The position numbers were made by a program, and so were the translations under genes. 64,000 bases of DNA, from positions 5,208,001 through 5,272,000 of the forward strand of contig JANJGN010000034.1 of NCBI GenBank assembly GCA_026770705.1, read 5' to 3'. Of this stretch, positions 18,893 through 61,923 are shown piece after piece. The first letter of the stretch is position 1; each line of letters opens with the position of its first letter. Under the pieces are notes generated by a model. The model was not told the DNA's origin. It saw only the letters and a list, made by a program, of their open reading frames with translations, and searched no databases. The DNA is from Isurus oxyrinchus (lineage: Eukaryota).

Positions 18893-18913
18893 AACTTGAC
18901 AAGTGCCAAGACG
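18893..18913 (+). CDS. 21-nt heptad microexon, ELDKCQD
   Basis: cattaattgtgctttctatcatttctgacag|AACTTGACAAGTGCCAAGACG|gtaagc. Confidence 0.85.
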
Positions 18914-20576: not shown

Positions 20577-20597
20577 TATCAGAGATGTTTGAGAATG
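20577..20597 (+). CDS. 21-nt heptad microexon, VSEMFEN
   Basis: attaatg, a long T run, then gttttccttgcag|TATCAGAGATGTTTGAGAATG|gtaaga. Confidence 0.85.
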
Positions 20598-25363: not shown

Positions 25364-25384
25364 CACAAAAGCATTGCATAGCCG
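25364..25384 (+). CDS. 21-nt heptad microexon, AQKHCIA
   Basis: cattaattgcattttctctaatcctgacag|CACAAAAGCATTGCATAGCCG|gtaagc. Confidence 0.85.
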
Positions 25385-33193: not shown

Positions 33194-33214
33194 AATTGAC
33201 AAAAGCCAATGACG
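33194..33214 (+). CDS. 21-nt heptad microexon, ELTKAND (cassette-type exon)
   Basis: gattttctattccgcctgcag|AATTGACAAAAGCCAATGACG|gtaaga. Confidence 0.85.
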
Positions 33215-34606
33215 GTAAGACCATGGCAAAATTAATTTTGATGTGCAGTGTCTAACTTATATCATGGCTACACATGAGCAGGAATGCAATTTGTGAAGGG
33301 TAAACTTTGTTACAACAAGTCCAGAACCATGCACTAATCGTGGCAAGGCTAGATATTTCATTGGAATAGAAGTATAAGACTGGAAAAAATGTTTCTTTCA
33401 CCCTAAACTCTCCCAATACCAACATATTTCCCTTTGATTTCAATGCAACTATATATCACGTGTTATTTAGATGGTTTTGGTTGGTCAATGATGGTGTCTA
33501 GAATGGATTGCGTTGAAGAATATAGTGGGGTTGGTGTGTAAGGGAAGGAGTGCTCAACTGAATACATCTGTCCCTTACGGAAAACCTATCACTGCCGTTG
33601 CAGCAGTGGCATCAGAACGCCGGTGAGTGCAAATTCACCTCCAAGCCATTGACCAACCTGAACAGAAACGGGATCAGTGTTTCTTCACGGTCACGGGTAC
33701 AAAATTACTAAATTACATTCCAAAGACCCCACTGTGCCTTCGTACATTATCATCCCTCGAAGTCCTACCAGAACGTATGCGAGAATAACGTGGGATGTCC
33801 CCCAAATTCAAAAAAAAACGTAACGCAAGCATTGCACAGCAATTATCCGTGAGATTTCTAAATCTACTGGGCAAGACCACCGGTGATGGAAACCTCCCAA
33901 ACAGTGATGTGTTGTAGGATTTTTTGAATGACTCCAAATTTCTTAGTTTAGTACCTACGCATGTATATGGCCATGGATAGAAAACAATTATAATGAATGT
34001 ATAATCAATCTAATTACTAGTAGCCCAGCACACCAATGGGAGTCCTGATCAACGATAGCAATATCCAGAATATAATAGCGTGAAAAAATGTGCTCGTCCC
34101 ATCTAAACTCTTGAGGATCTGTTTGCTTCAGCAATCCCAGCACATGATTTAAAAGTAAGCTATGCACCGTTTCTTCCAAAAAAAGCACTTCCTCTGCAAA
34201 AAGTATCACATTCAGGGTGTCCATTAAGTTTTACCTCTTCAGTTATGTTATGATCATTTTTCCGAATTTTCCTCAGTTGTGGCAGCGTGTTTTTTTCATA
34301 GGCACATGAAAATGTTATTTCATTGGCTAAAGATACACACAGATTTTAAACTATTCGATTCTTCGAGGGGCCCCATGACTTATTTCAAATCCTTAAGCTT
34401 CATTTTTTTTCCCTTGTTGATACATTAATGGGGCTATAGTAAACTTTCACCTGAAGCTGATTCTCTGCTTGATATGCGATGTGGAAACAGCAACTTATAT
34501 AAGTTGCAAGCTTTAATTTGCTTTCATCATGGTGAACTATTATTAATTTAACTTCTGTGAAGGAGAAGTATGCATCTTTAAATGCAGTTTCTTTCCTTTC
34601 TGGCAG

Positions 34607-34627
34607 TGATTGTGAAGTGCCAAGAAG
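34607..34627 (+). CDS. 21-nt heptad microexon, VIVKCQE
   Basis: gtttctttcctttctggcag|TGATTGTGAAGTGCCAAGAAG|gtaagc. Confidence 0.85.
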
Positions 34628-35099
34628 GTAAGCACAGCATCACTACTGTTGCAACTCATTGTGGAGGAAAGAATTGATAGGACGGTGGTAATGTAAAAGA
34701 CACATATAACTGTGTCCAAGTTGCGTGCTTGTTGGGCGTGGCTCATGAGTCTGCACTTGAGTGCCATGTTTGTCTGTAGTGGTCAGCTTCGGTTAGGGTC
34801 CGGTGATTAAGACAGTTTAAGGTTTAAATTAAATCTAAAACCTTTCAATTAGCAATTAACTAAACGTTTCTCTTAATGATGGAAAAGGTAAGCTTTACTG
34901 CAGTCTTACAACAGGGCTCATACAGGCTCTGCCTGCAACAGAACATAATTCATTATGTATTTGGCTTAATCAGGATTTCAGCAGCAAGGTTCAGAGTTTA
35001 TAACACTATTTTATCTGATATTTCTTACTTTCCTTGTCCTGGATTGTTGTGTTAAGCTGCATTGGTGGGTTTCTGTTGGAGTGTGGTGACTGATGGAGG

Positions 35100-39422: not shown

Positions 39423-39443
39423 AACTTAAGAAGTCAACTAAAG
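39423..39443 (+). CDS. 21-nt heptad microexon, ELKKSTK
   Basis: aattaactgttccttttattttaccctacag|AACTTAAGAAGTCAACTAAAG|gtatga. Confidence 0.85.
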
Positions 39444-40500: not shown

Positions 40501-43188
40501 AAGGATAGTTTTTAAAAAATGAATATGTTAGGAGATGAGCAAAATTGGATGATAATAATATAAGTTAGTTGTCGAAAAAAACATAAAATAAAGCCATAAC
40601 GTTTAAAAGAAAAGTTGTGTTGCTTTGCCCAGAAGAGCTGCGATGGCGTAGAATTTTCACTGCAGAGAGTAGTTAACGGGCCACTGTAAAAACATCCCAG
40701 AGGAGGAAAGGTAAACACTCGAGCGTGCAGGGAGGAAACTGCTACGGTGGTAGGTTTAGAAGATGGAACAGGGGAGAAACTCGAGTGAAGCATAAAAAAT
40801 GACATCGAGTGTAGAGGTTGACCGGCCTGTTTCTGACCGAATATGTTGTGTTCTCTGTGAAGGAAATCTGCACGGAGAATATAATCAATCATTATATGAA
40901 CTGTAAAGTAGTTACAAGCTGGAGGTGTAGACGATTGTGTGCCTCAGGATTTAGAGTTTGAGGTCTCAATACAATGTGAATCCTCTCAGAAGCCAGCAAA
41001 TGCGTCAAAATGAATACATGATTCTACTTGACAGGAGATTTACAGAGTTCAAGCAGTGCATCAGGTGTACACATATAAAAGCATCAAAAGTCTTGAGAAA
41101 AATAAAGCAGCCTTCCTAACGTATTTCTGATATTAGAAATTCCAGGCCCACATTCAGGTTGTTAAGCGTGAAAGTCACTCATGCATGGATGAAATAAACA
41201 TCGTTATATTCCAAGCATCGACTTGCCAAACCTGTCTAAAATCCACTTGGTGATGAGCAGTGAATGCTGTTCGTAAGGAAGTTAGGCACATCCGGTAGTT
41301 AACACAAACAATTGAATCCATCCTCCTCCAGTTCTGCCATTCTGCACGCTCTTGATGTTTACCGCTCCATTATTGACTTCATGGCCTTCAGACCGAAAGG
41401 TTCCGTTACTGGTTTCTTCTCAAATGCACCCCCCCCCCCCACCCCGCCCCCGGCCTTTTCAAAACTCTTCGGTTCACTTTATGCAGCACTTTAAATCTTT
41501 TCTCTTTTCATCAAGTTATTTAGTGTTTTTCATTGCTTTTCGATGCGAAAGAGCTGTTGAATTCCAATTCATTTACAATTGTAAGTTGTGTCATAACACA
41601 TAATCATTGTTAAGCATGACACTAGTTAGACTACAGCTGGAGTACTGCGTGCAGCACTGTTCGCAGCACTATAGGAAGGATATGAGTACACTGGAAATGC
41701 TTCAGGGGAGATTCACCTGGATGTTGCCTGCATTGTAGCATTTAAACTATGAATAGAGACTGGGACGTCTGTGTTTCTTTATTGCTCAGAGCAAGAAGTC
41801 CAATGAGGGATCTGATAAAGGTATATAAACTGTAAGAGACGTAGATATGGTAGACCACTAGCGGAGGTGTCAATAATCATGGGGCATGGATTTAAGTTGA
41901 TCAGCAGGGGATCTGAGGATTTCCTTTTACACCTGGAGATGGTTTCACCTCTTTAAAAACTGCCTGAGGGAGTGAGGCACAGGCGGTGGGAAGGGGCGGG
42001 TGTGGGAGTGCGCTGGAATGTAATCCATCACAGTGCAGACCTACGCTTTGTAGATTGTGGACATGATCTGATCAGTGAGGAGGAGAGTTGTTCTCCATTG
42101 ATTGTACAGAGCCTGAACTGGCCTTTATGTAGTGTGTGCATATGGCACGTCCAGTTCAGTTTCTGCTCAATGATAACGGCAAAGATTTCAATAGGCGGTA
42201 TTCAGGCATGATGATTCCTCTGAATGTCAAGAGTGGATGGCGGGATTCTCTCTTTTGGGAGATTGTCATTTTATGGCCCCTGGTAGTCACGAAATTTGAC
42301 TGCCATTTTTCAGACCAAGCCTGGAACAGATCTTGTTTCATATTGCCACCCAGAGCTTCCTTATAATCGAGGATCAATTAGTTTTTGTTCTCTTTTCGCA
42401 CAGCAACCTCATTATTCCGAATGTTAATTTTTTTTGTGCCATATCGCATGAAGCGGTATACGAATAACACTGGCAATAATCAAGGATTTTTTTAATATTC
42501 TGGAGCTGTACGGATTTCGGGGTATAACACAGAAGAGGAAATTCATCTAGTATTTACAATAAAATGAGAGAATGGGGCTGTGGTTTAAAACAGTCAAAAT
42601 AATATTATGGAATATATTTACAGAGTTGAGACTGGAAAGTAAAATGTTTGTAACGATGGGGAAGATCAAAAAGGCAAAAAATATTGGAACTCAGGAAGGC
42701 ACCAATGTGATTGTGACTGAATGTCTCTAATGACACATGGAGCAATCTACATTCTTTAATTGAGGGCAATTTGCTGAAAATATAACTATCAGTGAATGTC
42801 TCTGCCCTTGCAAATGTGAGATTTTATGTGTTTCAATGTATTTGCTTTTAGCATTTTAATTGCTGAAGAAATGCTTTTAGGGCCTAAATTTGCCGAGGAG
42901 CTGAGTTCGGAAGTTCCATTCTCCTCTTCCTGCTTCCATTGATTTTTCCATCTCTGATTTGTTTCGGGCTCTAATCGAATTACTTGTCAGCCAGAGAGAC
43001 TTTGGCCTTCAATCCAAATCGTCATATTTGTTTGCTTTGTTATTTGCCACAAACCTTTATTTGTTAAGGCACCTGTGATGTGGATGCCAGGTTTGGCCAT
43101 GTTATTGGAGGCATACGCATTCAATTCGTTGTCATATTTGCATTAATCTATAATTCTCAACTGTGTCATAGTAGATCAATTATCTTAA

Positions 43189-44378
43189 TGTCACTTTAAT
43201 GTCCGCTTTGTCCTCACTTATAACCTCACCAGCCTCTGCATTCAAAGGATCATCCTCCAGCATTTCCGCCAATTCTAGCATGATGCCACCACCAAACACA
43301 TCTTTCCTTAACACCCCCCCCCCCCCCTCCACCTCCCACCGGCGGCATTCCGTAGGGATCGTTGCCTCTGTGACACCTTGGTCCACTCCTCCATCACCGC
43401 CTACTCCACAACCCCCACCTATGGCACATCTCCATGCCCATACAAAAGATGCAACACCTGCCCTTTCACTTCCTTTCGCCTCACAGTCCAACACCCCAAA
43501 CATTCCTTTCAAGTGAAGCAGCATTTTACCTGCATCTCCTCCAACTTAGTCTACTGCATTCGTTGCTCACAATGCGATCTCATCTACATTGGAGAGACCA
43601 AACGTAAACTGGGCGACCGCTTTGCAGAACATCTGCTATTTGTCCGCAAGAATGACTCAAATCTCCCTGTTGCTTGTCATTTTAACACACCACCCTCCTC
43701 TCTTGCCCACATGTCTGTCCTTGGTTTGCTGCATTGTTCCAGTGAAGCCCAAGGCAAACTGCAGGAACAGCACATCGTCTTCTGACTAAGCACTTTACAT
43801 CCTTCTGGACTGAATATTGAATTCACCAACTTTAGATCTTTAACTACTCCTCCACCCCACCCCCTTACTGTTTCTTCCCCCTTCCTTTTGTTTTTTTTAT
43901 CATTAATTTATTTCGATTTTTCTTTTCCCACCTATTTCCATTATTTTTAAATATTTTATGTCCTCCTAGCCTTTCCACCCCACCCCGACTAGAGCTGTAA
44001 CTTGAGTACCCAACCAACCATTCTTAATTTGCACATTCGTTTAGTTGATAACACCATCTTCAACACCTCTGTGTACTTTTGTTCTTTTGTCTGTCGCATC
44101 TTTTGATTACCTGTTCCTATCACTGCTAGCTTGTCCCTACAACCACAGCCACCCCCCCGACACTCTTCTCACCCCCCACCCAACCCACCCTCCCCCCACT
44201 TGAAAATAGTTTATATTTCATCCCTCTCCTTAGATTATTTCAGTTCTGTTGACGGGTCCTGGGAACTGGAAGTGTCAAACCTTTTCTTCTCTGCCGATAC
44301 TGCCAGACATGCTGGGTTTTTCAGAGCAATTGTGTTTTTGTTTCGGATTTCCAGCATCCATAGTTTTTTTTGTTTTTA
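43189..44378 (+). mobile_element. 5'-truncated Penelope-like retroelement (GIY-YIG endonuclease end) with an 8-bp flanking duplication
   Basis: ORF 43378-43785 contains FTCISSNLVYCIRCSQCDLIYIGETKRKLGDRFAEHL. It is flanked by tatcttaa at 43181-43188 and 44379-44386. Confidence 0.92.
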
Positions 44379-44665
44379 TATCTTAAGCTTGATCTCAATC
44401 TCCAACACTTTATATGCTAAGTAGACTGCTTTGATAATGGGTAGTTTAATGGCGATGTTTGGGATGAACAGCATTTATGAAAACTGTGGTTGTGGATCCA
44501 TGAGGGAATGCAACGCTCCGCTGGCAAAAGCCCTAATTTCGGCAATACCTATCACCTGGAAGTTCTGATGCAGCAGTGACATGGGAACGCCAGCGAGTGC
44601 AAACTGAGCGCCAAGCCACTGTGAAACCTGAACAAAAACTGTATCAGTGACACTTCAACGTCACG

Positions 44666-45097
44666 GGGCCAATATTTCCAAATTACCCTGCCAAGAGCCC
44701 ACTGCTTCATCATGCTGTATCATTCCTGGGACCCTCTCAGAATTTCGCCATGAACTCCGTGGGATATTCCCCCAGATTAAGAATACATTACAGAAGAATT
44801 GCACGTACATTGTCTGTGAGGTTTCCACAATGATTTTTGTCAATTATCCCGCTGCTGGAACCCTTTGGAACTCCGACGTCAAATGGTTTAATGTGGGCCA
44901 ATATTTCCAAATTACCCACTCAAGAGACCACTGTTCCTTCATACAGTATCATCACTGCGAGTCCTGTAGCCAGGAACTGCATTTGATGTCCCTTCAGATT
45001 AAGATTTCAGAATGGAAAGATTTCACGGAAATTGTCCGTGAGGTTGCCACTTCCTTTGTTGAATTATCCCGCAGCTGGAACTCTCTTAAACTCCGAT
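44666..45097 (+). repeat. ~230-bp local tandem duplication within the first cassette
   Basis: gggccaatatttccaaattaccc...aactccga occurs twice (~44666-44880 and ~44896-45097). Other cassettes carry at most one copy. Confidence 0.8.
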
Positions 45098-47329
45098 ATA
45101 TATGGAAGATTTCGGATTATGCCAATTCTCATAGCACAATACCAATGCAAATAAATTCCCTGGACCAAACCCGCTGCTAATGTTTGGATAATGAAACTAA
45201 TTAATCGTGTTCTGGCACACCAGCAGGCGCCCTGGTCAGCGATGCAAATATACAGAAAATTAATAACGCACTTCTGTTTCGTTTATGCAGAACATTATAA
45301 CTCTTGTCTTTCATCAAAATATTCAAAGCTTTTCGTTGCTTTTCCTTGCCTGAATCAATGCGAAGGAGCTGTTGAATTTAATTTGCATTACATTTGCAGG
45401 GTCTGTCAGAACGGTTAATCATTGCTAAGCATGAGGCTAGTTATACCACGACTTGAACACTTTGTGCAACTCTGGCCACCACGCTGTAGGAAGGATATGA
45501 CTGCACTGGACAGTTTCAGGGGGGGTTTCACCTGGAGGTTCTCAGATTTGGAGCGTTTCAGATATGAATACTTACTGGCTACGCTTCGTTTTTTTTAAAT
45601 CCTTAGAGCAAGACAGCTCATGAGGTATCTGATTAATGCATATAAAACTGTGAGGGAAATAGATAGCGAGAGAAAGGATGAAACATTTCCCATTAGCGGA
45701 GGTCTCAATAATCATGGGGATGGATTTAAAAGCCGGGATCAGAGCGTTCAGTGGGGATTTGAGGATTTCATTTTTCACCCACAGGGAGAGTGCAATCTGT
45801 AAATCACTGCTTGATTGAGAGGGAGTGGTTTATTTCATTACACTGCTGACATGTGCCTTGTAGATGCTGGACATTATCTGATTAAATAGGAAGAGAGTTG
45901 CTCTCCGCAGATTTTCCATAGCTTGATCTGCCCTTTAGGCCCTGTGTGTATGTGACAGATCCAGTTCAGTTTCTGATGAAAGGTGACAGCAAATGATTTA
46001 CTTTTCGAGAGTTCAGCCATTGCGATTCAACTCGCTTTCATAAGGCGATGGTTAGATTCTGTCTTTTTTGATATTGTCATTTCCTTCCCCTTGTAAGGCA
46101 CAAAATTTGATTGTCGTTTTTCAGCACAAGCCTGAAACGGCTCTTGCTGCATTAAGGGACCTAGTGTTTCCTTCTCATCGAATTTCAAATAATTTTATGT
46201 TTCTCGTTTTAGAGCAGCAACCCCATTATTCCGAAAGTTCATTTTTTTTGTTGTGACTCATTGTATGAAGCGCTATAGGAATAACACTGGCTGTATTCAA
46301 GGAAAAGTTGTAATTGGGAGCTTTACGGAATTCGGGGTGTTTTACAGAAGATAAAAACCGTATAGCATTTACCATGACATGAGGAGATGGAGGTGGGATG
46401 TCAAAGAGTGATAATAACTATAATAAAATGTAGTTACAGAGTTGGCACTGGAAAATAAAATGTTTCTGTAGTTGTAGAATATCAAAAATGCAACAATATT
46501 GGAACTCAGGAGACACCAATGTATTTAGTGCTGAACGGCTCTCATGAACCACCGAGCAATCTACAGTCTTTAATTGAAGGCAATTTGCTGAAAATAAAAC
46601 TATCAGTGAATGTCTCCGCCCGTTTAAATGTGAGATTTCCTGTGCTTCAAGATATTAGCGTTTTGTGCTTAAAACAATGATGTTCTGGTTTCAGGTCCTA
46701 AATTTTCTTAGGAGCTTAGTTCAGAAGTTCCATTCTACTCTCCGCTTCCTTTGATGTTTCTATCTCCGCTTTGTTATGGGCCCTAATTGAGTCACTTGTC
46801 ACCCAGACAGTCTTTGGTCTTCTATCATATTCGTCACATTTTTTGGCTTTTTGATTTCAGGTATACCTTTATTTGTTAACATACCTGTGATGCGAATTGC
46901 CATGTTTCGCTACAGTAATGGCGCCACATGCATTTAATTCGTTGTCATTTCTGCATTATTCTATAATTGTCACCAGTGTCACTATTTATTAATTAATTGA
47001 GGTCTCAAGTCAAGTAGACTCCTTTGATAATGGGTTCCCATTTCCGGATACACGAGATTTTACATAATTCGCATGTTTGATTCATTCTCTGTGCATGTAT
47101 GCATTCAAATTCTTCAAAGAGAATTAAGAATCTGTTTGGCACTATATTAACGGTATATTTCCAGTTCATGCATAGATGCTTTCCTTTTGCAAGGTCTGCT
47201 TGTATTGGGATGCAGCAAGTCCACACCAATACAGGATTCTGAGTTTGATTTTGCTGTCAACTGTTCTGTTAATTGTTTGAAAATGAAATAAATTGTGAAT
47301 AAAATGAGACATTTCCATTCCGCCTACAG

Positions 47330-47350
47330 ACATGGAAAAGGAGATTGAAG
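47330..47350 (+). CDS. 21-nt heptad microexon, DMEKEIE
   Basis: catttccattccgcctacag|ACATGGAAAAGGAGATTGAAG|gtaaga. Confidence 0.85.
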
Positions 47351-50252
47351 GTAAGAGCAGGGCGAAATGAATTTTGATGTATGGTTCTTCCCTGGATCTC
47401 TGATACCACCGAGCCGGAATGCAATTAGAACTGGCTACAATTATTTCCAACAATTCCAATGACATGAACCAGTCGTGCGAAGGCTAGATATTTCCATGGA
47501 TCAGGAGCACAAGATTGGAAATAATATTTTTTTCCACACAAAATGCTCTCAATATCAATAACATTCCTGTTGACTTGCATGCAATTATTTTTCATGTACT
47601 ATGTAGATGGCAGTAGTAGGTTAATGGCGATTTCTCGGATGAATAGCCGTGAAGAAAACGTGGGCGTGTGTCCGTAAGTGAAGCCAACGCTCCACTGGCA
47701 ACAGGTCCAATTTCTGCAATACCAATCACCTCCAAATGCTGAAGCAGCAGTGGCATGGGAACGCCGGTGAGTGCAAACGCAGCTCCAAGCTACGAAGCAA
47801 CATGAAAAGAAACGGTTTCAGCCATCCTTCACTGTCACCGGGCCAATATTTCCAACTTACCCTCCCAAGAACCCAACATTCTTTCGTACTGTATCATTCC
47901 TGGGAGTCCTACCAGAATGTAACCAGGAACTGCGAGGCATATCCCCCAAGATTAAGAATTCATAACAGTAGGATTGCACAGAAATTGTTGTTGAGGTTTC
48001 CAGTTATTTTGTTCAATTATCCCGCAGCTGAAACCCTCTAAAACTCCGACGTAATGTGGGAGTTTTCGGATGATTCCAAATCTTGTAGCAGAAAAGCTAC
48101 GCAAATAAATTGCCAGGGACCTAGAACGTTTCTAATGCTTGGATAATCAAACTAATTATTCATAACCCTGCACACAATCGGGTGCCCAGATCAGCGATGG
48201 CAATATTAAGAAAATGATTAATACTCTTAACTTTTATTCATGTAGAACTTTAAATCTTTCCTCTTTCTTCAAGATATTTACATTTTTTCATCGTTTTGCC
48301 TTGCCTGAATAGAAGCGAAGGAGCTGTTCGATTTCATTTGCAATGGTAAGGCCTGTCCTCACATATAATCATTGTTAAGCATGGCACTAGTTAGAACGCA
48401 GCAGGAGCACAATGTGCAGCTCTGGTCACAGCACTGTAGGGAGGATCTGACTGCACTGGAGTTGTTCAGGAGAGATTCACCTGCACGTTACCTGATTTAA
48501 AGCGTTTCAACTGTGAATAGCGACTGGTTAGGCTGAGTATTTTTTTATTCCTCAGAGCAATAAGGCAAACTTGGGTTCAGAAAAATGTATAACAATCTTT
48601 GAGGGAAACAGATGGGGTAAATAGGAAGGAACGTTTCCGCTTAGCAGAGTTGACAATAATCATTAGGCATGGAATGAAGGGACATGAACAGGGGGTTTAG
48701 AGAGGATTTGCGGGTTCCTTTTTCAGCCAGAGGGTCGGTTGAATCTGCAGGACACTGCCTGAGTGATGGGGGAGGGATGTGCACTCCATCGCAGTGCAGA
48801 CATGTGCCTTGTAGATGGTGGACATGATCTGAGCAGTCAGGAAGAGAGTTGTTCTCTGCAGAACTACCCTTCATGCACTGTTTGTATAGGACAGATCCGG
48901 TTCAGTTTCTGGTCAATGATAACGACAAATATTTCAACAGAGGGGAATTGATCCATGATAATCACTCACAATGTCAAGAAGGGATGATTTGACTCTCTCT
49001 TTTTGGAGATTGTCATTTTCTGGCCACTGTGAGGCAAGAAATTGGTTTGCCATTTTTCAGCACAAGCCTGAAACAGCTCTCGCTGCCTTTCACCGCGCAG
49101 TACCTCCTTCTAATGGAGATAAATTAGTTTTTTTTTCACTTTTAGCACAGCGACATCATTGTTCCGCATATTCACATCTTTTTGTGAACAACTCATGAAG
49201 CGATATTTTAATATTACTGGCAGTATTCAATGATTTTTTTTTTAATTGGGAGCATTACGGAATTCGGGGCATTTTATAGAAGAGGAAACATTTATAGCAC
49301 TTACCACGACACGAGGTGATGATGGTGGGGTGTCAAAGAATGATAAATTATTTTATGGAATGTACTTACAGTGTTGACACTGGAAAATAAAATACCGGTG
49401 GGGAATAGTAAAAAAGTCAAAAGTACTGCAACACAGGAATGCACCAACTTGGTTGGTACTGAATGGTATTTAACTGAGGGCAGTTGGCTGAAAAAAAAAC
49501 TTTCAGTGAATGTCTCCAATCTTACTAATGTGAGGTTCTCTATATTTCAAAGTATTAGTGATTAGCATTTTATATACTGAAGAAATGATTTCAGGGCCGA
49601 AATTTGGTGAGGACCTAAGTTCGGAAGTTCCATTCTCATCTCTCTGCTTACTTTTTTTTTTCTTCTCCGCTTTGTTACCTGCTCTAATCGAATCACATGT
49701 AGTGCAGAGAGACTTTGGCTTTCTATGCCAACAGTCATATTTTTTGCTTTGAGATTGGAAGCATATACTTTTCTGTTAAGACACCGGTGACGTGACTTGC
49801 TACGTTTTGCAACGTTAATGGCTCCATATGCTTTCAATTTGTTGTCATTTTTCATTTATTCTGCTATTATGATATTGTCACACCAAGTCAATTATCTTCA
49901 GCATGAATTCAATCCCCATCACATTATACGCTATGTAGACTGCCTTGACCATAATTTTCCCTTTTAAGGCTACAGGACATTTGAGATATTTCGCATATTT
50001 TTGTCATTATCTGCTTATGTATGTATTCAAATGCTTCAAACATAAATATGAATCTATTCGGCCGTATGTTTAAGGTATATTGTCAGCTTATGCATGCATG
50101 CTGTCCTTTTGCATGGCATGATTGCGATGGGATGCCACAATACCACACCAATATTGGATTCTGAGATTGATTACGCAGTCAATTGTTCTTTTAATTATAC
50201 AAAAGTAAAATAAACTCGACCGAAAAATAAAATCTTTCTATTCTGCCGACAG

Positions 50253-50273
50253 TACTGGGGCTAGCCAAGGAAG
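50253..50273 (+). CDS. 21-nt heptad microexon, VLGLAKE
   Basis: atctttctattctgccgacag|TACTGGGGCTAGCCAAGGAAG|gtaaga. Confidence 0.8.
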
Positions 50274-53121
50274 GTAAGACCTGGGCCTAATTAATTTTGA
50301 TCTATAGTGTCTTACTTGTATTATCGTTAAACACGAGCCTGAATGCAAATTGAGAAGTCTGAAACTATTTACAACCAGCCCAGAATAATGGACTAATCAT
50401 GGGAAGTATTCATATTTTCTTGGAACAAGAGTGTCGGAATGGAAATAATATTTCCTACACACAAAACGCTCTCCATACCAACAACATTCCTATGACATCT
50501 GTCAACCAACATTTCATGCAATATTTCGAAGGCACTGATAAGTTTATATCAATATCTTTGATGCACTACTTAAAAGGAAAACGTGGGTGCTGCTCCGTAC
50601 GGGAAGCAAACTCCTTGCTGGCAACATCTCTTTTCTGCAAGACCTATCACCTCGAAGTGCTCATGCGAACGCCGGTGAGTGCAAACTCAGTTGCAACCAC
50701 TGAGCGACCTGAACATAAACGGGATCAGCGTCCCATCACTGTCACGAGGCCAATATTTCTTAATTACCCTGCAAAGAGCCTACCGTTTCTTCATTCAGTA
50801 TTGTTCCTGGGATCCCGAGCAGAAGGTAGCAAGGGACTGCTTGGGCTATCCACCCAACTGTGAATTCATTACGGAAGCATTGCAGGGAAATTGTTTGTCA
50901 GCGTTCCACTTGTTTTTGTCAATTATACCGTGGCTTGAACCCATCGAATCTCTGACGTAATGTGGGAGAATTTGAATGTTTCCAAATCTCTAGGAGAATA
51001 GTGACACAAATAAATTCCCAATGACATAAAACAGCTACAAAGACTTGGATAATTAACCAAATTGCTCGTAACCCGGCTCACCAGCGGTTGCCCAGATTAG
51101 CAAAGGCTATGTACAGATAATTAATAATGCACCTCTGGTTCCTTCATGTAGCATTTTAAATCTTTCCTCCTTCATCATTTTATTTACAGTTTTTCAGCGG
51201 TTTTCATTGACTGAATTGACGCAAAGGAACTGTTGAATTTCCTTTGCATTAGAATTGTACCGTGGGTCATAACACATCATCATTGTTAAGCATGACGCTA
51301 GATAGACCACAAATCGATCACTAGTTCCGCTCTGTTCACTGCAATATGGGATTTTTGTGACTACACCAGCGATGGTGCACCGGAGATTCACCTGAATATT
51401 ACCTGATTTGGAGATTTTCAACTATGTGTGCCTTTTTTTTTATTCCTCAAGCAAGAATGCTAATGAGAGTTCTGATGAATGTGTATTAAACTATGCGGGA
51501 CATAGATAGGTGAGATAGGAAGAAATATTCCCCATTTTCGGAGTTGTCAAAAATCATAGAGAATAGATTTAAGGGGACTGGGGTTTCCGAGATGTTTTGA
51601 GGATTTCCTTTACCACCCATATGAAAGACACGCCTGATGGAGGATGGAGGAGGGGAGTGGGGAGGGTGAATTCCAAAACTGTGCAGACTATGCCTTGTGT
51701 ATGGTGGAAATGATTTGATAAGTCAGATGGAGATGTGTTCTCCGCAGATTTTCCAGACTATGAGCAGCCCTTAAGGCACTGTGATTATATGATCAATGCA
51801 GTTCAGTTTACTCTCCTTGATGACACCAAAGATTTTCATAAACGGGTATGCAGACATGGTGATTCCTCTGAATGTCAACTGAGGATGGCTGCAATCTTTC
51901 TTTTTGGAAATTGTCGTTTTCTGGCCCCTTTGAGGCAAGAAATGCGTTTGCCGTTTTTCAGTTCAATCCTGAAACAGTTCTAGCTGTATTTCGCCATGAA
52001 TAGCTTCCTTCTAATCTAGGATAAAATTGTTCTTTTTTTAGCACAGCATCTTCATCATGTCGAATGTTCATATTATTTTGTGACACTTCTCATGAAGCAA
52101 TATAGCAATAACCCTGGCAGTAATCAAGGAAACTTATTAATTGGGAGTTATATGGAATATGGTTTCTTTTACAGAAGAGGAAACAGGGGTAGCATTGTCC
52201 TTGACACGAGGAAATATGGATGGGGTGTCAATGAGTGATAAATTTGGAATGTATTTACAGAGTTGACACAGGAAAATGGAATGTTTCTACCGGTGGAAAT
52301 ATAAAAAAGGGAAGAATATTGAACCTCAGGAAGGCACTGATGTGATTTGGACTGAATGACTCTCAACTACCACCGTGCAATCTACAGTTTTCAATTGAGG
52401 GAAATTTGCTGAAAATAAAACTATCAGTGAATATCTCCAACCTTCCGAAGATGATATCTTCTGTATTTCAAAGCATTCTGGTTTAGCGTTTTAAATTTAG
52501 CAATTCTAATCTCTCTTGTTGCGATGGATATTTTTTCCATCCTGCTTTATTAACGTCACTAATCGAATCATGTGCAGGCCAGATATCCTTTGGCTTTCTA
52601 TCCCATCAGTCATTTATTTTGCTTTGAGATTGGAAGCATATCTTTATTTGTTAACTCACCTGCGACATGACTTGCCATGTTTTGCTACGTTAAAGGAGCC
52701 ATATGCATTTAGTTCGTTGACATGTTTTCGTTATTCTATAATTCGCACTAGTGTCACTATAGGTCAATTATCTTCAGCATGAAGTCAATCTTCATCTCCT
52801 TATATGCTTCGTAGGATGCTCTGATCATGTTCTTCCCGTTTTAGGATACAGGTAATTTTAGGGACTTCGCATATTTGATTCATTCTCTGCTAATGTATGC
52901 ATTCGCATGCTTCAAAGAGAATTATGAATATATTTGGCGTTTTTCTACTGCTACATTTCTAGCTTATGCATGCATGCTTTAACTGCGCATGACCTGCTTG
53001 CAATGGGATGCCACAATTCCACAGCAGCACTGGATTGTCAGTTTGGTTTTGCAGTTCTGCTAATTATTCAAAAGTAAAATAATTTTTTTGCAAACATGAA
53101 TGTTTTCCATTCCACCTACAG

Positions 53122-53142
53122 CACTTGGAAAGGTCACTGACG
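53122..53142 (+). CDS. 21-nt heptad microexon, ALGKVTD
   Basis: tgttttccattccacctacag|CACTTGGAAAGGTCACTGACG|gtaaga. Confidence 0.82.
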
Positions 53143-55626
53143 GTAAGAAAATGGCGAAATGAATTTGATGTAAAACGTCTTAAATGCATCATCGATACAC
53201 ACGACCCCGAATGATATTTGAGAAGGCTCAAATTATTTACAACAAACCAAGAATCATGAACTAATCTTGAGAAGCCTAGATATTTCCTTGGTCCAAGTGT
53301 GTGGGACTTGAAATAAAATTTATTCCACGCAAAATGCTTTCAATACCTCGGACATTCCTAATGTCATCTATGCACCTACATTTCATGCAATGTTTAGATG
53401 ACACTCGTCGGTTAATGGCAATGCCTGGGATGAATAGCATTGAAAACAAACGTAGGTGTTGCTCCATAAGGGAAGCCAACGCTACGCTGGCAAAATGTCC
53501 AAATTCCGCAAAGGCTATCACCTTGAAGTGCTAATGCAGCAGCAGGAGGGAAATGCCACCAAGTGCAAACTAAGCTCCCAGCCATTGAGCAAACTGAACA
53601 TTAGATCTTTCCTCTTTCATCATGACATTTACAGTTTTGCATTGCTTTTCCTGGTCTGAATCGATGCCAAGGAGCTGTTCAATATCATTCACATTACAAT
53701 TGTAAGGTGTGCCATAACATATAATCATTGTTAAGCATAACGTTCGTCTGACCACAGCTGGAGAACGGTGTGCATCTCTGGTCGCCGCACTAAATGCAGG
53801 ATGTGACTGCAATGGAAATGGTTGAAGGGAAATTCACCTGGATGTTACCTGATTTGGAGCATTCGAACTCTAAGAGGAGTCACTCTAGGCAGCGTTTTTA
53901 ATTCCTCAAAGCTAAGATGCTAGTCAGGGATCTGATGAATTCATATAAAACTATGAAGGACAGAGATATGCTAGATAGGAAGAAATATTTCCCATTAGCG
54001 GAGATTACAATAATAATGAGGCTTGGATTTAAGTTTAGGCAACAGGGAGTTCAGAGGGGAATTGATTATTCCCTTTTTTTGCCCAGAAGATGGTGGGAGT
54101 CTGCAACATACTGCATGATTGAGGGGGTGTGGTCCATTCCATCACAGTGCAAACCTGTGCCCTGTAGACGGTGGACATGATTAGATTAGTTAGGCAGAGA
54201 GTTGCACTCCGCAGATTGTCCAGAGCTTGGCCAGCTGTGAGTATTTGAAAGATGTGGTTCACTTTGTGCTCATTAATAACACCAAAGATTTTAATAGACA
54301 TGTATTCAGCCATGGTATTCCTTTGTAAGTCAATTGCGATTCTCTCTTTTTGGAGATTGTTATTTTCTGGCTTTTGTGAGGCACGAAATGTGTTTGCCAC
54401 TTTACAGCCTAAGCCTAAAGCAGCACTTGCTGCAGATAGCCACGCTGTCCATCCTTCTAAACCAGGACCAAATCGTTTTTTTGTCTCTTTTAGTGGAGCG
54501 ACCTCATTATTCTGAATATTCATATTATTTTGTGAGAAATCACATGAAACGATATAGCAATATCAATGGAAGTGTTCAAGGAAAATATTTAATTGGTATC
54601 CGTATGGATTTCGTGTATATTACAGAAGAGGAAACATGGTAAAATTAACCATGACAGAAAGAGATGGGGCTGGTGTGTCAAAGAGCGGTAATTAATATTA
54701 TGGAACGTATTTAGAGTTGACAGAGGAACTAAAATGTATCTGCTTGTGGCGAATATCAAAAGCGCAAAAATATTTGAACTTAACTAGGCACCAATCTGAT
54801 TGTGACTCTATTGCTCTCTTGAACCACTGAGCAAGCTGCATAAGTTAATTGAGGGCAATTAACTGAAAATACAAGTATCACTGAAATTCTCTGCCCTTCC
54901 AAATGTGAGTTTTTCTGCACTTCATGGTATTTACGTTTAGCGTTTTAAGTGCTGAAAAAAAGTTTTCAAAGCCTAAATATGCCGAGGAGCTTAGTTCCGA
55001 GGTTGTGCTCTCATCTCTGTGCTTCCTTTGATTAAACCATCTCCGAATTTTACAACTTCTAATCAAATCATTTGTCACCCAATTTTTGCCCTTCGACGCC
55101 ATTTGTCTTTTGTATTTGATTTGTTAATTGCAGCATACCCTTACTTGTTAATGCAACTCTGACGTGACTTGTTATATTTTGCTATGCTGATGGTGCCATA
55201 TGCATTTTATTCATTGCCACATTTGCATGATTCTATAATTCTCACCATGGTCACTCTAGGTCAATGATCTTAAGCTTGAACTCAATCCTCATCACTTTGT
55301 ACGTTAATTGGACTGCCTTGGTAATTGTTTTCCCATTTACGTGCTCCGGTAAATTTGAGATACTTAGCATATTTGAATCATTCTCCGCTAACGTATGTAT
55401 TTGAATGTTTCAAAGAGAATTATGAGGATATTTTGGTGTTATATTACTCGTACATTGCTAGCACATTCATGCATGCTGTACTTTCTATGAACTGCTTGTA
55501 TTCGAATGTTACAATACCAGGTCGATACTACACTCTGAGCTTGGTTTTACAGTCAGTTGTTCTGTTAACTGTTGAAAAGTAAATTCAATTTGACGCAAAT
55601 TTGAGAGCTTTCTATTCTGCCTACAG

Positions 55627-55647
55627 AACTGGCAAAGACCAATGAAG
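55627..55647 (+). CDS. 21-nt heptad microexon, ELAKTNE
   Basis: gctttctattctgcctacag|AACTGGCAAAGACCAATGAAG|gtaaga. Confidence 0.85.
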
Positions 55648-56590
55648 GTAAGACCATGGCGAAATAAATTTTGTTGTATAGTGCCATGCCTGTGTCATGG
55701 TTAAACAGGAGCCTGAATGCAATTTAAGAAGGCTAGAATTATTTACAACATCCCAGAATCAGGAAATAATTGTGTGAAGTCTACATATTTACTCTAACAA
55801 TGAGTGTTCGACTGGAAATAATATTTATTCCAATGAAGATCTTCTGAATCTGAAAAGCATGCTTAATGTCTGGGCTGAATAGTTTTGACAAAAAACATGG
55901 CTGTGGCTCAGCAGGGGATGCCAAAATCTCTAATTCCACAAGATCTGTCACCTATGCGTGCTGACAAAGCAGGGAATGGGAAAGCCGGCGAGTGCAAACT
56001 CAGCTCAAAGCCAGTGAGCATTCGGTACAGAAATGGTATCAACATTTTCTCACTGTCGCGGGGCCAGTATTTCTAAATTACCCTCCCAAGATCCCAGCGG
56101 TTTTCCTGCATTATCATTCCTCGGGTCCTGTAAGAAAGCAAACAGGAACAGCGTGACATATGACCCCAAATTTAGAATTCATAACGGAAGTCTTGCACAT
56201 AACTGTCCATGAGTTTCCACCTCTTTTGGAAATAAACCCTCATCAGGAAGCATACGAAACATCGATGTAATATGGGAGATTTCAGATTATTCCAAATTTC
56301 TTATCAGAAGAGGTGCACAAATAAATACCCAAGAACATAAACCACTGCAAATGCTTGGATACATAAATTAATTGTTCGTAATCCAGCGCACCAGCGAGCG
56401 CTGAGATCAGCAGTGGCAATATACAGAAAATTAATAATTCACATCAGTTTCCATTTCCTAGCACATGCAATGCTTCCTCTTTCATCATAAAATGGAGAAT
56501 TTTTCATCGCTTTATTGGCCTGAATCAATGCGAATTTGGTGTTGAAATTCACTAACATTACAATTGTTAGTGGTGCAAAAACAGATAATC

Positions 56591-58591
56591 ATAAGACTAC
56601 AAGACAAAGGAGAAGAAATCAGGCCAATTGGCCCATCGAATACGCTCCACCATTCAATTAAGGCTGAAAGATTTTCAACTCCGTTTTCGCACCTTCTTCC
56701 CATAACCTTTGATCCCCTTACCAAACTAAACCTATCTATCTCGATCTTTAATGCACTCAATGTCCTGGCCTCCACAGATTTCTCTCGCAATGAATTCCTC
56801 AGATTTACCACTCTCTGGCTAAAGAAGTTGCTCCTAATCTCTGTTCTAAAAGGTCTTCCCTTTACTCTGAGACTGTGCCCTCGGGTCTTAGTCACTCCTA
56901 TAAATGGAAACATCCTCCCCACGTATACCCTATCCAGGCCTTTCATTATTCTGTAAGTTTCAATCAGCTCCCCCCTCTTCCTTCTAAACTGCATTGAGTA
57001 TAGACCCAGAGTCCTCAAACCTTACTCATATGTTAAGCCTTTCATTACTGCGATCATTCTCGTGAGAATCCTTTAGACCTTCTCCATGGCCAGCACATCC
57101 TTCCTGAGATTCGGGGACCAAAATTCTCACAATATTCTAAATCTGGTCTGTGCAGAGCCTTTCAAAGGCTCAGCAGCACATCCCTTTATTTATATTCAAG
57201 TCCTCCCAAAATGAATGACAACATTCCATTTGCCTTCCATATTACCGACTCAACCTCTATTTTAACCTTAGGAGAATACTGGACCAGGACTCCCAAATCC
57301 CGTTGCACTCCAGATTTCTGAATTCTCTTCCCAATTACAAAATAGTCCAAACTCTCCTTTTGCTACCAAAGTGCATGTCATCAAAATTTCCCACGTTGCA
57401 TTCTACCTGCCAGTTCTTTGCCCATTTTCCTAACCTGTCCATATACTTCTGCAGCCCGCCCGCCTTCTCAGTTCTACCTGTCCCTCCACCTATCTTTGTA
57501 TTATCTGCAAACTTAGCCCGGATGCCCTCAGTCCCATCACCTAGATCGTTAACGTATAAAATGAAATGTTTTGATCCCAACACACACTTCCAGAACTCCA
57601 CCAGTCACTGGCCGCCATCCTGAGTAGGATCCCTGTATCCCAACTCTCTGCTTCCTGCCAGACAGCCAATATTCTATGCATTCTAATACGTTGCCTCTAA
57701 CTCCATGGACTCTTCTATTTTGAGCAGCCTCCTGAGCGGCACCTTGTCAAAGGCTGTCTGGAAGTCCAAGTAGATAACATGCATTGGCTTTCCTTTGTCT
57801 AACCTACTTGTTACCTCCTCAAAGAATTCTAATAGATTTGTCAGGCATGACCTCCCCTTGATGAAACCATGCTGACTTTGCCCGATTTTTCCATGTACTT
57901 CCAAGTATTCTGAATTCCCATACTATATAATGGACTCTAAAATCTTAGCAACAACATAGGTCATGCTAATCGGACTGTAACATCCCGTCTTTTGCCTCAG
58001 TCCCTTATTATACAGGGGAGTTACATTAGCCATTTTTCAGTCCTCTGGGACTCTCCCTGAGTCCAAGTGATTCCTGAAAGAACACCACTAACACGTCCAC
58101 TAACTCTTCAGCTATCCCTCCTTGAGAACTATGGTGTGTAATAGATCTGGTCCAGGTGATTTATCCAACTTCAGACCTTTCAGTTTTTCTAGCACCTTTT
58201 CCTTGGTAATGCCCACCATACTCACCTCTGACCCCCGACCTCCTGAACTTTGGGAATCTCACTCCTGTCTTCCACTGTGAAGACTGATGCAAAGTACCTA
58301 TTCAGTTTCTCGTCCATTTCTTTGTTCCCCGCGACTACTTCTCCAGAGTCATTTTCCAGTGGCATAATGTTATCCATTGCCTCGCTCTTACTCTTTATAT
58401 ATCCAAAAAAAACCTCTTTGAATCTTCTATAATATTATGGGGTAGTTTAACCTCATATTTATCTCCTTACTTATTTATTTTGTAGTTGTCCTCTGTTGGT
58501 CTTTGTAGGCTTCCCAAACCCCTGGTTCTCCACTGCTTTTTGCTGCATTGTATGCTTACCCTATAGCTTTTATGGCTGTCCCCGACTTCGG
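56591..58591 (-). mobile_element. Younger 5'-truncated CR1 LINE (~2 kb) inserted into a cassette
   Basis: Minus-strand ORF fragments [22 protein letters not shown]...[23 protein letters not shown] and KTRGHSLRVKGRPFRTEIR...FFSQRVVN. The element splits the cassette motif ataatc|attgctaagc. Confidence 0.95.
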
Positions 58592-60497
58592 ATTGCTAAG
58601 CCATGACTTTTGTTAGACAACAGCTTGAACAGTGTGTGCAGCACTGTTCGCTGCACTGAAGGAAGTATGTGAATGCACTGGAAATAGGTCAGGGGAGATT
58701 CACCTGGAATGTGCCTGATTTGGAGTGTTTCAACTATGAATAGAGACTGGCTAAGCTGCCTTTCTTTTTAATCCTCAGAGCAACAATGCTAATCAGGGAT
58801 CCGATGAAGTTATATAGAACTGTGAGGGACATAGATAGGGCAGATAGGAAGAAACATTTCCCTTTAGCGTATTTGACCATAATACTGGGGCATGGCTATA
58901 ATTTACAGAGCAGGGAGTTCAGAGAGGATTTCTGGATTCCTCTTTCAGCCAGAGGGAAGTTGGAATCTGCAACACAATGCCTGATTGAGTGGGTGTGCTC
59001 TGTTCCATCGCAGTGCAGACCTGTACCCTGTAGATGGTGTACATGATCAGGTCAGTGAGGTGTAAAGTTGCTCTTCACATATTTTTCAGAGCCTAACCTT
59101 CCTTTTAGGCGTTGTATATGTTTGAAAGCTGCAGTTAAGTTTATGGTCATTGGTAAGACCAAAGAGTTTAAAAGACGTGTATTCAGCCAAGCGATTCTTG
59201 TGAATATCAAGGGAGTATGATTGGATTCTCTCTTTTTAGGGATTGTAATTTTCTGGCTCCTGTGAGGCATGAAATGTGTTTGCCATTTTACAACCCAAGC
59301 CTGAAACAGCTCGTGCTGTATATCGCCACACAGTACTTCCTTCCAAACCAGTGTCATTTTTTTTTCTCATTTAGCACAGCGGCCTCATTATTCTGAATGT
59401 TCATCTTATTTTGTGACACATCGCATGAAGCGCTCTAACAATACCATTAGAAGTGTTGAAGGAAAAATTTTAAGTGGGAACTGTATGGATGTCAGGTGCA
59501 GCATTTACCGTGACACGAGGAGATGGGGGTGGTGTGTCAAAGGGTGATAATTAATAATATGAAATGTATTTACAGGGTTACAGCTGGGAAATAAAATGCT
59601 TCTACTGGTGGGGGAATATAAAAAAAAACAATAAAATATTGGAAATCAGGGAAGCAGCAATTTGATTGGTACTGAATGGATTTCATGGATCACCAAGCTT
59701 TCTACAGTCTTTAATTCAGGGCAATTAGCTGAAAATAAAGCATTCAGTGAATGTCTCCGCCTTTCCAAATGTCAGGTTTTCCATACTTTATGGCTTTTGC
59801 CTTTAGTCATTTAAGTGCTGAAGGAATGTTTTCGGGGCCGAAATTTGCCAGGGAGCTTAGTTCAGAAGTTCCATTCTCATCTCTCCACGTCCTTTGATTT
59901 ATCCATCTCCTAATTGTTAGTGCTTCTAATCGAATCACTTGTCAAGCAGACAGACTTTGGCCTTCTACCCCATTCGCGTTTTTTTTTTTGCTTTGTTATT
60001 TGGAGCATACCATTATATGTTCATGTAGCTGCGACGTGAGTTGTTATGTTTTGCTATATTGATGGCGCCATATGCACTTAATTAATTGTCATGTTTGCAT
60101 GATTCTATAAGTCTCACTTGGGTTACGCTAGTTCAAGTATCTTCAGCTTGAAATCAGTCATCATCACCATATATATTAAGAAGACTGCTTTGATAATGGT
60201 TTTCCCATTTAATGGTTCCTGAAAATTTTAGATATTCGTGTATTTGCATCATTCTCTGCCAATGTATGTATTCGAATACTTCACAGAGAATTATGAGGCT
60301 TTTTTGGCGTTATATTACTCGTACATTGCCAGCACAGCATGCATGTTGTCATTTCCATTGACCTGCTTGTTATGGGATGCCACAAACCAATGCCAATACT
60401 GGATTGTGAGTTTGGTTTTGCATTTATTTGTTCTGTTAATTGTGCAACTGTAAAATAATTTTGACGAAAATATTTGAGCTTACTGCTCCGCTTGCAG

Positions 60498-60518
60498 ATC
60501 ATGCAAAGGTCAATGAAG
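60498..60518 (+). pseudogene. Degenerate heptad microexon DHAKVNE with donor GT>TT
   Basis: tactgctccgcttgcag|ATCATGCAAAGGTCAATGAAG|ttaaga. All paralogous cassette exons have gtaaga here. Confidence 0.75.
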
Positions 60519-61902
60519 TTAAGAACAGGACAAAGTCCATTCTGATGTAAAGTATCTTACCTGCATCAGCGGTACACAGGCGCCTGAATGCAATTTTATC
60601 ACGCTAAAATGTTGTACAACAAACCCAGAATCATTAAGTAATCGTGGAAAGCTAGGTAATCCTTTGGATCAGAAATAATACAAGACAGGAAATAATGCTT
60701 CTTCCACAGAAAAATTTCTCAATAACAGCAACATTCCCATTGACTTCCATGCACCTATATTTGATGCAATATTTAGATGGCACTGGTAGATTAATCGGTA
60801 TGTCTGGGATGAATAGTGCTGAAGAAGAAAGTGGGTTTTCCTCTGTAAGGGAAGCCAACGCTCTGCTGGCAACATCTGTAATTTCAGCAAATGCCTACCA
60901 CCTAGAAGTGCTAATGCAACAATGGCATGGGATCGATGGCAATTGCAAATTCAGATCCAAGATACTCAGCAACCTGAACATAAACGGTATCAGCGTTCCT
61001 ACACTGTCACGGGGTGCGTATTTTCCTCCCAAGCACCAACCGTTTCTTCATTCAGTATCGTTGCTGGGAGTAATACCAGAATGTAGCCAGGAACCATGTT
61101 GGATTTCCACTCAAATTAAGAAATCACAACGCATGGATTGCAACAAAATTGTCCGTGAGTTTTCCACTTCTTTTGGGCAATTGTCCCGCACCTCCAAAAC
61201 TCCAACATAATTTGGGAAATTGTTGATGATTCCAGATCTCTTTGCAGAATAGCTATGCAAATAAATTCCCAAGGAACAAAACCACTCTCAAGCTTCTATA
61301 ATTCAACTAATTGGTCGTAACCTGGCACACCAGAACGCATCCAGGTCAACGATGGCAATATACACATTATTGGAATATGAAAAATAAATGCTTTTCTCTT
61401 ATAAACTCTTGTGAGTAATTAGCTTCAACATCCCCAATACAGGATTTAGAACAGTTAGCTATGCTCCCTACCCGCCAAATAAAATGCTGTTTCTCCAACA
61501 AGTGTCACTCTCAAGATGTTCATTAAGTTTTATCTCTTCAATGATGTTCTGCTCAATTGCCCAATCTTGCTCCTTTGTATCAGCCTTCTTTTTGCAAAGC
61601 ACCTGTAAATGTTATTTTATTGACTAAGGATGCAGACAGGTTATTAACGTGCGGTTTCCTCCTGTTGCACTTGACTCCTTTCAAACCCTTACACTTGAAA
61701 GACTTATATCTCTAGGAGAGGTTTAACTGCTATCCAAGAAGAAATTGCCTTGGATTGATTTGTTGCTTGACATGAACTGTGGAAAAAGTTAAGATACTAA
61801 GCTGGAAGTTCTACTTTGCTTTCTTTGTGGTGACTTTGTTAACTTCTCTTCTGTGAACGAAGAATTTGCAGCTTTAATTGTAGGTTCTATCCACCCTGAC
61901 AA

Positions 61903-61923
61903 AGATTGTGAAGTGCAGAGGCA
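61903..61923 (+). pseudogene. Degenerate heptad microexon EIVKCRG with acceptor AG>AA; paralog of 34607-34627
   Basis: ttctatccaccctgacaa|AGATTGTGAAGTGCAGAGGCA|gtaagc. Confidence 0.7.

Follow-up and report, generated by a model that had tools for sequence, protein, structure and literature searches.

The array of microexons described here lies in a stretch of 64,000 nucleotides (nt) from Isurus oxyrinchus (GenBank assembly GCA_026770705.1, contig JANJGN010000034.1, positions 5,208,001 to 5,272,000 of the forward strand), which is called the window below and is numbered from its first base. Self-BLAST of the window followed by multiple alignment of seven units forms the basis for the description of the array. 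Between 41.47 and 61.37 kb there are six same-strand, colinear units of ~2.9 kb, arranged head-to-tail (expect values, E, down to 0.0), and a seventh homologue, U0, lies upstream at 31590-34080 (Table 1). Relative to unit 1, the following units are offset by 3804, 6759, 9666, and 12110 bases, giving spacings of 3.80, 2.96, 2.91, and 2.44 kb, and the start of unit 6 lies 2.85 kb past that of unit 5. An earlier note on this DNA had proposed six colinear units at spacings of about 3.8, 2.95, 2.9, 2.45, and 2.85 kb, together with a seventh homologue at 31.5-34 kb; these coordinates and spacings are correct, and the colinear periodicity is present. The alignment is colinear across ~3000 columns. 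Units 1-6 are 70-74% identical to each other, with Kimura two-parameter distances (K2P) of 0.32-0.39 (15 pairs), and 65-68% identical to U0 (K2P 0.43-0.47; 6 pairs); the ratio of transitions to transversions among the units is no more than 0.65-0.79, a low value for neutral DNA of vertebrates. The uneven spacing is traced to later events: a retroelement insertion, a deletion, and a 229-bp duplication, all in unit 1; a ~430-bp deletion over the 4/5 junction; and a 2-kb antisense long interspersed nuclear element (LINE) in unit 6. Wherever a unit retains its exon, this 21-nt exon occupies one shared position in the alignment, and the array therefore has the same-strand, head-to-tail homologous segments with a homologous exon that define tandem exon duplication. 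Tandem Repeats Finder (period limit 500) reports three short arrays in the window and none within the six-unit array, none of the 25 pairs listed among 62 short inverted-repeat pairs in the array suggests terminal repeats, and an Rfam scan of the window gave no matches.

The exons themselves were recognized in a splice-site scan of both strands for AG-21nt-GT, compared with ten other exon lengths. A score of at least 5 bits is reached by 12 of 219 such plus-strand sites versus 0 of 213 minus-strand sites, and each of the ten other lengths yields 0-3 sites on either strand. A thirteenth candidate, at 15730, is weak and was added by eye; it is the least certain of the set. In all, the window holds 13 intact-looking, 21-nt, phase-1 exons on the plus strand, spread over 49 kb. 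Each of the 13 ends in G; the residue that opens each heptad comes from a split codon, to which the preceding exon contributes this G. When the exons are joined in order, phase 1 alone is open (0 stops versus 5 and 13 in the other phases), and they would be spliced jointly into one mRNA. The duplicated exon is symmetric and frame-preserving: since the exons are 21 nt long and of phase 1-1, gain or loss of an exon preserves both the reading frame and the register of a coiled coil, and thus any piece of intron that contains an exon is a harmless unit of duplication. Codon 2 is L, I, V, M, or F in 10 of the 13 exons, and codon 5 is hydrophobic in 9. This hydrophobicity at codons 2/5, taken as heptad positions a/d, is matched by 0 of 20000 shuffles, or by 3 of 20000 when only the nine exons outside the array are used; the a/d score is 1.75 for codons 2/5 and -2.64 for codons 4/7. 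The joined exons contain no proline, and 39 of their 91 residues are charged. As a prediction, the assignment of heptads and coil is well founded.

Table 1. Features of the window. Values in bits are acceptor / donor scores; peptides are phase-1 translations; RT, reverse transcriptase.
Feature	Position	Strand	Evidence or remark
Exon ELKQRND	7085..7105	+	1.3 / 5.2 bits
Exon DIKSLEA	8736..8756	+	4.3 / 7.9 bits
Dead second-type exon	14684..14704	+	in-register AG and GT lost
Exon candidate EKLKLQK	15730..15750	+	weak, 1.5 / 1.6 bits
Intact second-type exon ELDKCQD	18893..18913	+	
Intact exon VSEMFEN, in oldest long cassette copy (19.49-21.42 kb)	20577..20597	+	profile match E 6e-83; K2P 0.71-0.78
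Dead second-type exon	23303..23323	+	AG and GT lost, in-frame stop
Intact second-type exon AQKHCIA	25364..25384	+	
Seventh unit, U0, outgroup to units 1-6	31590..34080	+	K2P 0.43-0.47
Intact exon of U0, ELTKAND	33194-33214	+	
Block continuation, duplicated at 61375-64000	34080..36552	+	holds exon 34607-34627
Intact second-type exon VIVKCQE	34607-34627	+	
Intact exon ELKKSTK, in older, internally deleted cassette copy (38.5-39.5 kb)	39423..39443	+	K2P 0.78 to U0
Unit 1, exon-less	41465..45268	+	~586 bp including microexon deleted at 44440; Penelope-type insertion
3' fragment of presumed Penelope-type retroelement, GIY-YIG endonuclease, in unit 1	43190..44378	+	Pfam GIY-YIG E 1.7e-4
Internal 229-bp duplication of unit 1	44666-44876 / 44895-45096	+	copies 75% identical
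Unit 2, complete cassette	45269..48226	+	self-BLAST, alignment
Sense LINE RT 3' fragment, units 1-6 (unit 2 coordinates)	45431..45812	+	tblastn/HMM in units 1, 2, 3, 5, 6; DNA match in unit 4
Second fragment, in all units and the 38.5-kb copy	45830..46175	-	resembles LINE RT C-terminus by eye only
Intact exon of unit 2, DMEKEIE	47330..47350	+	5.6 / 6.6 bits
Unit 3, complete cassette	48227..51134	+	self-BLAST, alignment
Intact exon of unit 3, VLGLAKE	50253..50273	+	4.1 / 6.6 bits
Unit 4, shortened by ~430-bp deletion across 4/5 junction	51135..53597	+	
Intact exon of unit 4, ALGKVTD	53122..53142	+	5.1 / 4.7 bits
Unit 5, sister of unit 6	53598..56445	+	support 100/99 and 98/98
Intact exon of unit 5, ELAKTNE; no intact microexon follows in window	55627..55647	+	5.9 / 6.6 bits
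Unit 6, interrupted by 2-kb LINE	56446..61375	+	
Presumed CR1-type LINE ORF2 fragment, inserted in unit 6	56580..58590	-	RT, PF00078; tblastn E 1.6e-101
Unit 6 exon copy, donor lost	60498..60518	+	core Leu to His; read-through stops after 16 codons
Dead copy of 34607 exon	61903..61923	+	acceptor AG lost

The six units are one layer of a longer record. Homology runs past U0, such that 34.08-36.55 kb matches 61.4-64.0 kb with 67-69% identity (K2P 0.41-0.45); U0 is therefore part of a block that holds two exons and spans at least 5 kb. Older copies of the array cassette (K2P 0.71-0.78) contain the exons at 20577 and 39423, and a second type of cassette (K2P 0.6-0.7) carries the exons at 18893, 25364, and 34607. 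Within this second type, an older tandem duplication of ~2.1 kb (21734-23500 / 23851-25561; K2P 0.70) holds one dead and one live exon. Thus, three strata of divergence are visible among the duplicated segments. Fifteen exon positions can be assigned to the two cassette types (10 intact, 4 broken, and 1 deleted), and the window as a whole contains at least 17 exon copies, 13 intact-looking and 4 dead, plus the one deletion. Read from the sequence, this is a pattern of microexon birth and death across the window, with the six-unit array as its youngest layer.

When the units are placed on a tree with the older copy as outgroup, units 1-6 form one clade (support 99/99), and clades of U0 with unit 6 or with unit 1 are rejected (approximately unbiased test, p-AU 0.0002 and 0.0013, respectively). 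The tree is star-like, having internal branches of 0.01-0.026 and tips of 0.15-0.20, which does not support steady growth. The sole firm pair is units 5+6 (98/98), which share 52 derived sites versus 12-22 in the other 14 pairs. The array would thus represent an old burst, or an early homogenization that then stopped, and seems to have been frozen since. At the rate given by the whale-shark/zebra-shark pair, for which synonymous divergence (dS) is 0.061-0.111 over a split of ~50 million years (PMC13100897), the burst would date to 145-320 million years ago; as the local rate may differ, we take an age of the order of 100 million years. The epaulette-shark pedigree rate of 7e-10 per generation (PMC10587355) gives ~250 million generations, which is implausible, and this dating was dropped.

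How the array arose can be read in part from its junctions. One common junction is present at four of the five unit boundaries, the 4/5 boundary itself having been removed by the ~430-base deletion. From this junction, the sense LINE fragment is ~150 bases downstream and the antisense piece ~2 kb upstream; the 150-base unit head was not found in any of four other regions tested. No homology links the DNA upstream of unit 1 with any of six unit tails (z -1.0 to 1.1; control 103.5) or the DNA downstream of unit 6 with any of five unit heads, and all 11 flank comparisons have z of 1.1 or less. Crossover between pre-existing repeats predicts homologous flanks; the founding duplication was therefore non-homologous. 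For the later increase in number, unequal crossover between young whole units is the likeliest amplifier. The proposal that such crossover had lengthened the coil one heptad at a time stands to the extent that units 5 and 6 lie side by side as sisters, the pattern that duplication of one unit should leave, but this accounts for one event only.

Not all copies kept a usable exon. In unit 1 a ~586-bp deletion removed the microexon, and in unit 6 TT replaces the GT donor, although the acceptor is intact at 5.5 bits. Read-through of the unit 6 exon (60498-60550) is a possible alternative end, and AATAAA-type words are present near 61260 and 61385. A usable exon is retained in four of the six array units (47330, 50253, 53122, and 55627), or in five of seven when U0 is counted. 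Consequently, the claims that each unit holds one microexon and that each cassette adds 7 amino acids hold for the four units with an intact, in-frame, 7-codon exon and fail for units 1 and 6, and the burst would have brought a net gain of at most 4 heptads (28 residues) instead of 6. Conservation was examined at nine splice positions in the six exon-holding copies, the dead copy in unit 6 included, with a binomial test in which cells are taken as independent, an assumption that suits a near-star tree. Splice positions are off-majority in 1 of 54 cells versus a background of 17.7% (1631 columns; P 3.4e-4), and without the AG and GT in 0 of 30 (P 0.003). Selection seems to have kept the inclusion of the exon and the residue at codon 2, rather than the exon sequence, although the numbers are small.

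The earlier note had further suggested that LINE fragments within the units aided the crossover and that cassette number may be polymorphic among individuals. In its full form, this explanation holds that crossover between LINE fragments created the array and still drives it. A sense LINE fragment is indeed present in each of units 1-6, and the chicken BG1 gene provides a precedent for allelic variation in exon number (PMC5043582). However, the junction lies outside the LINE pieces, the array ends are not homologous, and the breakpoints inside repeats, the chimaeric repeat, and the homologous flanks expected of LINE-mediated recombination are not found. Ectopic crossover needs long near-identity. 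The units are 26-30% diverged; the longest exact match between any two is 30 bp, the best 100-bp window is 88% identical (21 pairs), and the long near-identical tracts expected of an active array of variable copy number are absent. Present-day polymorphism is therefore unlikely, and the explanation as a whole is very unlikely; differences in cassette number between species are plausible. Still harder to credit, and in our judgment scarcely tenable, is the idea that a dispersed composite element inserted independently to give each unit, as might be suggested by the partly transposon-derived content of the unit and by similar pieces elsewhere in the window. All unit-length and partial non-LINE matches are on one strand, with the exon at the same place wherever the match is long enough; the only two minus-strand matches are both to the LINE part; and the units abut head-to-tail with a common junction, with homology extending into the flanking exon blocks. 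Copies in both orientations at unlinked sites are not seen within the window, and tandem duplication, as the earlier note had favored, is upheld.

Other explanations concern the use of the exons rather than their origin. The duplicated exons could be alternatives, mutually exclusive or often skipped, so that one heptad is diversified and the coil is not lengthened. Tandem exons that exclude one another are known as a class (PMC9741552), and divergence of the exon interiors here equals or exceeds that of introns (identity 0.57 versus 0.69; 3% of 541 windows are as low). Such events are rare, however, making up 0.3% of human splice events (PMC9741552), and the heptad exons of BG are additive (PMC5938342). 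Moreover, introns of kilobases impose no steric exclusion, and symmetric, in-frame exons carry no frame penalty for joint inclusion; we consider alternative use unlikely. A little more weight, though still well short of an even chance, goes to a decaying 3' block, in which the gene ends at or before unit 6, or 41-64 kb is a truncated duplicate whose array exons are unused. Both exon copies past 55.6 kb are broken (60498 at the donor and 61903 at the acceptor), and the strong acceptor that remains at 60498 would permit the kind of read-through truncation reported in BG (PMC5938342). Against decay, the full splice consensus is kept in four array exons, and the dead copies at 14684 and 23303 lie upstream between live exons, so that exon death is no marker of the gene end.

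The reading that we consider probable is that the window holds the middle of a vertebrate gene for a coiled-coil rod built of one heptad per exon, in which an old two-exon block, a founding non-homologous join, and a burst to six units left an array that is now frozen. It builds on the homology, the strata, the anatomy of the junctions, the conservation of the splice sites, the open frame, and the heptad pattern. The first stage would have been old duplications, of segments with one or two exons (K2P 0.6-0.8), followed by duplication of the two-exon block of at least 5 kb (31.6-36.5 kb / 59-64 kb; K2P 0.41-0.47). In the second block copy, a non-homologous break-and-join would then have created the first head-to-tail repeat of 2.9 kb, and unequal crossover, acting when the copies were still near-identical, may have expanded it to six units in a brief burst (K2P 0.32-0.39). 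The array would have been frozen by substitutions, deletions, and fresh transposon insertions, while selection presumably kept the splice signals of four copies; one copy lost its exon and one its donor. The product would be a dimeric coil, and its length would be a trait under selection.

Several observations weigh against parts of this history. The remaining sister pairs are weakly supported (1+2, 70/67; 3+4, 80/84), so growth by one unit at a time is demonstrated for the 5+6 event alone, and early gene conversion that later stopped could also give a star-like tree. The splice scores come from approximate matrices. Hydrophobicity at the d position is weak across the four array exons (mean 0.45 versus 1.6 in older exons). 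Conservation of exon interiors does not exceed that of intron (26 of 108 cells depart from the majority, P(>=) 0.058), and nonsynonymous and synonymous differences (pN and pS) among the five live exon copies are 0.40 and 0.44; purifying selection at the level of amino acids is therefore not demonstrated. Finally, splice conservation sums the entire history of the copies and by itself does not prove present use of the exons.

The transposon content of the units was assessed by tblastn with 22 named reverse-transcriptase/endonuclease references (of 131 proteins listed, with unnamed ones set aside) and with a profile made from 20. Although the units had been described as mostly LINE debris, RT matches make up 0-11% of each of the seven units, and addition of the second, antisense piece brings unit 2 only to ~25%. 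The other ~2 kb of unit 2, which shows no Pfam family in any of six frames, may be an unrecognized old repeat. The sense RT fragment is absent from U0. The antisense fragment is not confirmed as LINE: there is no relevant Pfam family in 12 frames (two weak, unrelated matches), there are no PDB matches, a protein search gave no relevant match (0 of 44 candidates), and the RT profile gives no match. The insert in unit 1, which entered after the duplications, has its best named matches in Leucoraja erinacea (58% and 68%), and we take it to be Penelope-type from the known elements that combine RT with GIY-YIG. Likewise, the LINE in unit 6, presumably of CR1 type, has named RT matches in rays (sawfish and stingray), sharks (bamboo shark), chimaera, and also turtles. 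By themselves, the matches of these two inserts would make a cartilaginous fish the most likely source. Other decayed LINE copies are present at 35.4-38.5, 62.7-64, and 17.6-18.4 kb (plus strand), at 2.8-5.9 kb, and at 25.9-26.5 kb (minus strand); those at 35.5 and 63 kb are part of the duplicated block. Two inverted copies of a 68-bp repeat (1343-1410 / 1829-1896), with 97% identity and ~420 bp between them, resemble a young non-autonomous DNA transposon. Upstream of U0, 26.6-31.5 kb is a GC-richer (47-49%), insertion-like block with a 229-codon open frame (30488-31177) that has no Pfam match, and a suspected, decayed DNA transposon at 29.0-30.8 kb is unconfirmed, with no families in three minus-strand frames.

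Outside the array, further exon candidates and gene features were sought. The second-type exons at 18893, 25364, and 34607, as well as the dead copies at 14684 and 61903, have Cys at codon 5, the d position, which could yield interchain disulfides or acylation. A 36-nt, phase-1 candidate on the plus strand at 557-592 (3.0/7.0 bits; GTDACEAVIKLK) may belong to the same gene as an exon further upstream, and a weaker 27-nt candidate lies at 1094-1120. Just past the exon at 7085, a 135-nt open segment (7344-7478, plus strand) with strong splice scores (5.1/7.7), whose enclosing open reading frame has no Pfam match, is probably an intronic repeat. A search of the window for longer or transmembrane exons gave two weak candidates, neither of them hydrophobic. 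Pfam was run on 20 selected open reading frames and on all 136 plus-strand open reading frames of at least 62 amino acids in the window; these gave only GIY-YIG and three sub-threshold matches, with no Ig, SPRY/B30.2, or lectin domain. Exons for an immunoglobulin variable (IgV) domain or a transmembrane segment were likewise not found in the window; they could lie upstream of base 1.

The locus provides a clean fossil record, with three divergence strata and breakpoints that are still visible, and the question of whether heptad number is selected or drifts can be approached by comparing orthologues. Gene predictors would probably overlook the 21-nt exons found here. If this is a shark BG-like gene, BG-type architecture would date back to the base of jawed vertebrates; if it is unrelated to butyrophilins, it would have converged on the same exon design. 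Kinship with butyrophilins is possible. Conversely, the different heptad register may point to a new cartilaginous-fish gene that did not derive from BG/butyrophilin heptad exons, an independent one-exon-one-heptad design whose rod length was tuned by microexon birth and death over three or more rounds that can be dated; we regard this as a tentative and rather doubtful alternative. If it were true, the kilobase introns would record each gain and loss, and reconstruction of coil length over the phylogeny of sharks and rays would allow this length to be tested as a molecular ruler under selection.

Many 21-nt exons are also present in human TSBP1; a literature search gave no paper on its structure. 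Literature searches whose coverage leaves out most subscription papers listed no paper on a gene of the present kind in cartilaginous fish. Tandem exon duplication in general copies homologous exons together with their introns (PMC9741552), as here, but that account concerns mutually exclusive substitution, whereas addition is likelier at this locus, and its intron homology is readable over three strata. Tetherin/TMCC(aT)-type coils combine low sequence conservation with a conserved coil topology; the avian TMCC(aT) gene has about five exons, and the available part of its description mentions no 21-nt exon series like the one found here (PMC10617486). For coils of this type, or for a lectin neck, the Cys at d in all three live exons of the second type would fit an extracellular coil joined by disulfides. 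Proteins of these kinds have an N-terminal type II membrane anchor and a C-terminal GPI or lectin domain, which would be encoded at gene ends beyond the window. Butyrophilins occur in cartilaginous fish with a variable number of heptads after the transmembrane segment (PMC12841164) and are described as having few heptads followed by B30.2 (PMC5938342), unlike the at least 13 heptad exons over 49 kb here, where the 136 plus-strand frames match neither B30.2/SPRY nor Ig. The butyrophilin layout also includes IgV-IgC domains. The closest likeness is to chicken BG, a member of the butyrophilin/B7 family with 13-36 exons of 21 nt per gene (PMC4046983, PMC5938342, PMC5043582). In both, a coil is made from a long series of 21-nt exons whose first codon is split (phase 1), duplication of blocks (one to four exons in BG) alters the number of exons, and Cys occurs occasionally in the coil; truncation by donor/intron read-through, reported in BG (PMC5938342), is possible at unit 6. 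The systems differ in that hydrophobic a/d residues are at codons 4 and 7 in BG (PMC5938342) and at codons 2 and 5 here, that unequal crossover in BG1 has produced alleles with between 13 and 21 heptad exons (PMC5043582) whereas the diverged units here are frozen, and that the single IgV exon and the transmembrane exon of BG, which precede its heptad exons, have no counterpart found within the window. Thus, the principle that a coil can grow by duplication of 21-nt exons is already known from chicken BG, and the Isurus locus is a well-preserved further example.

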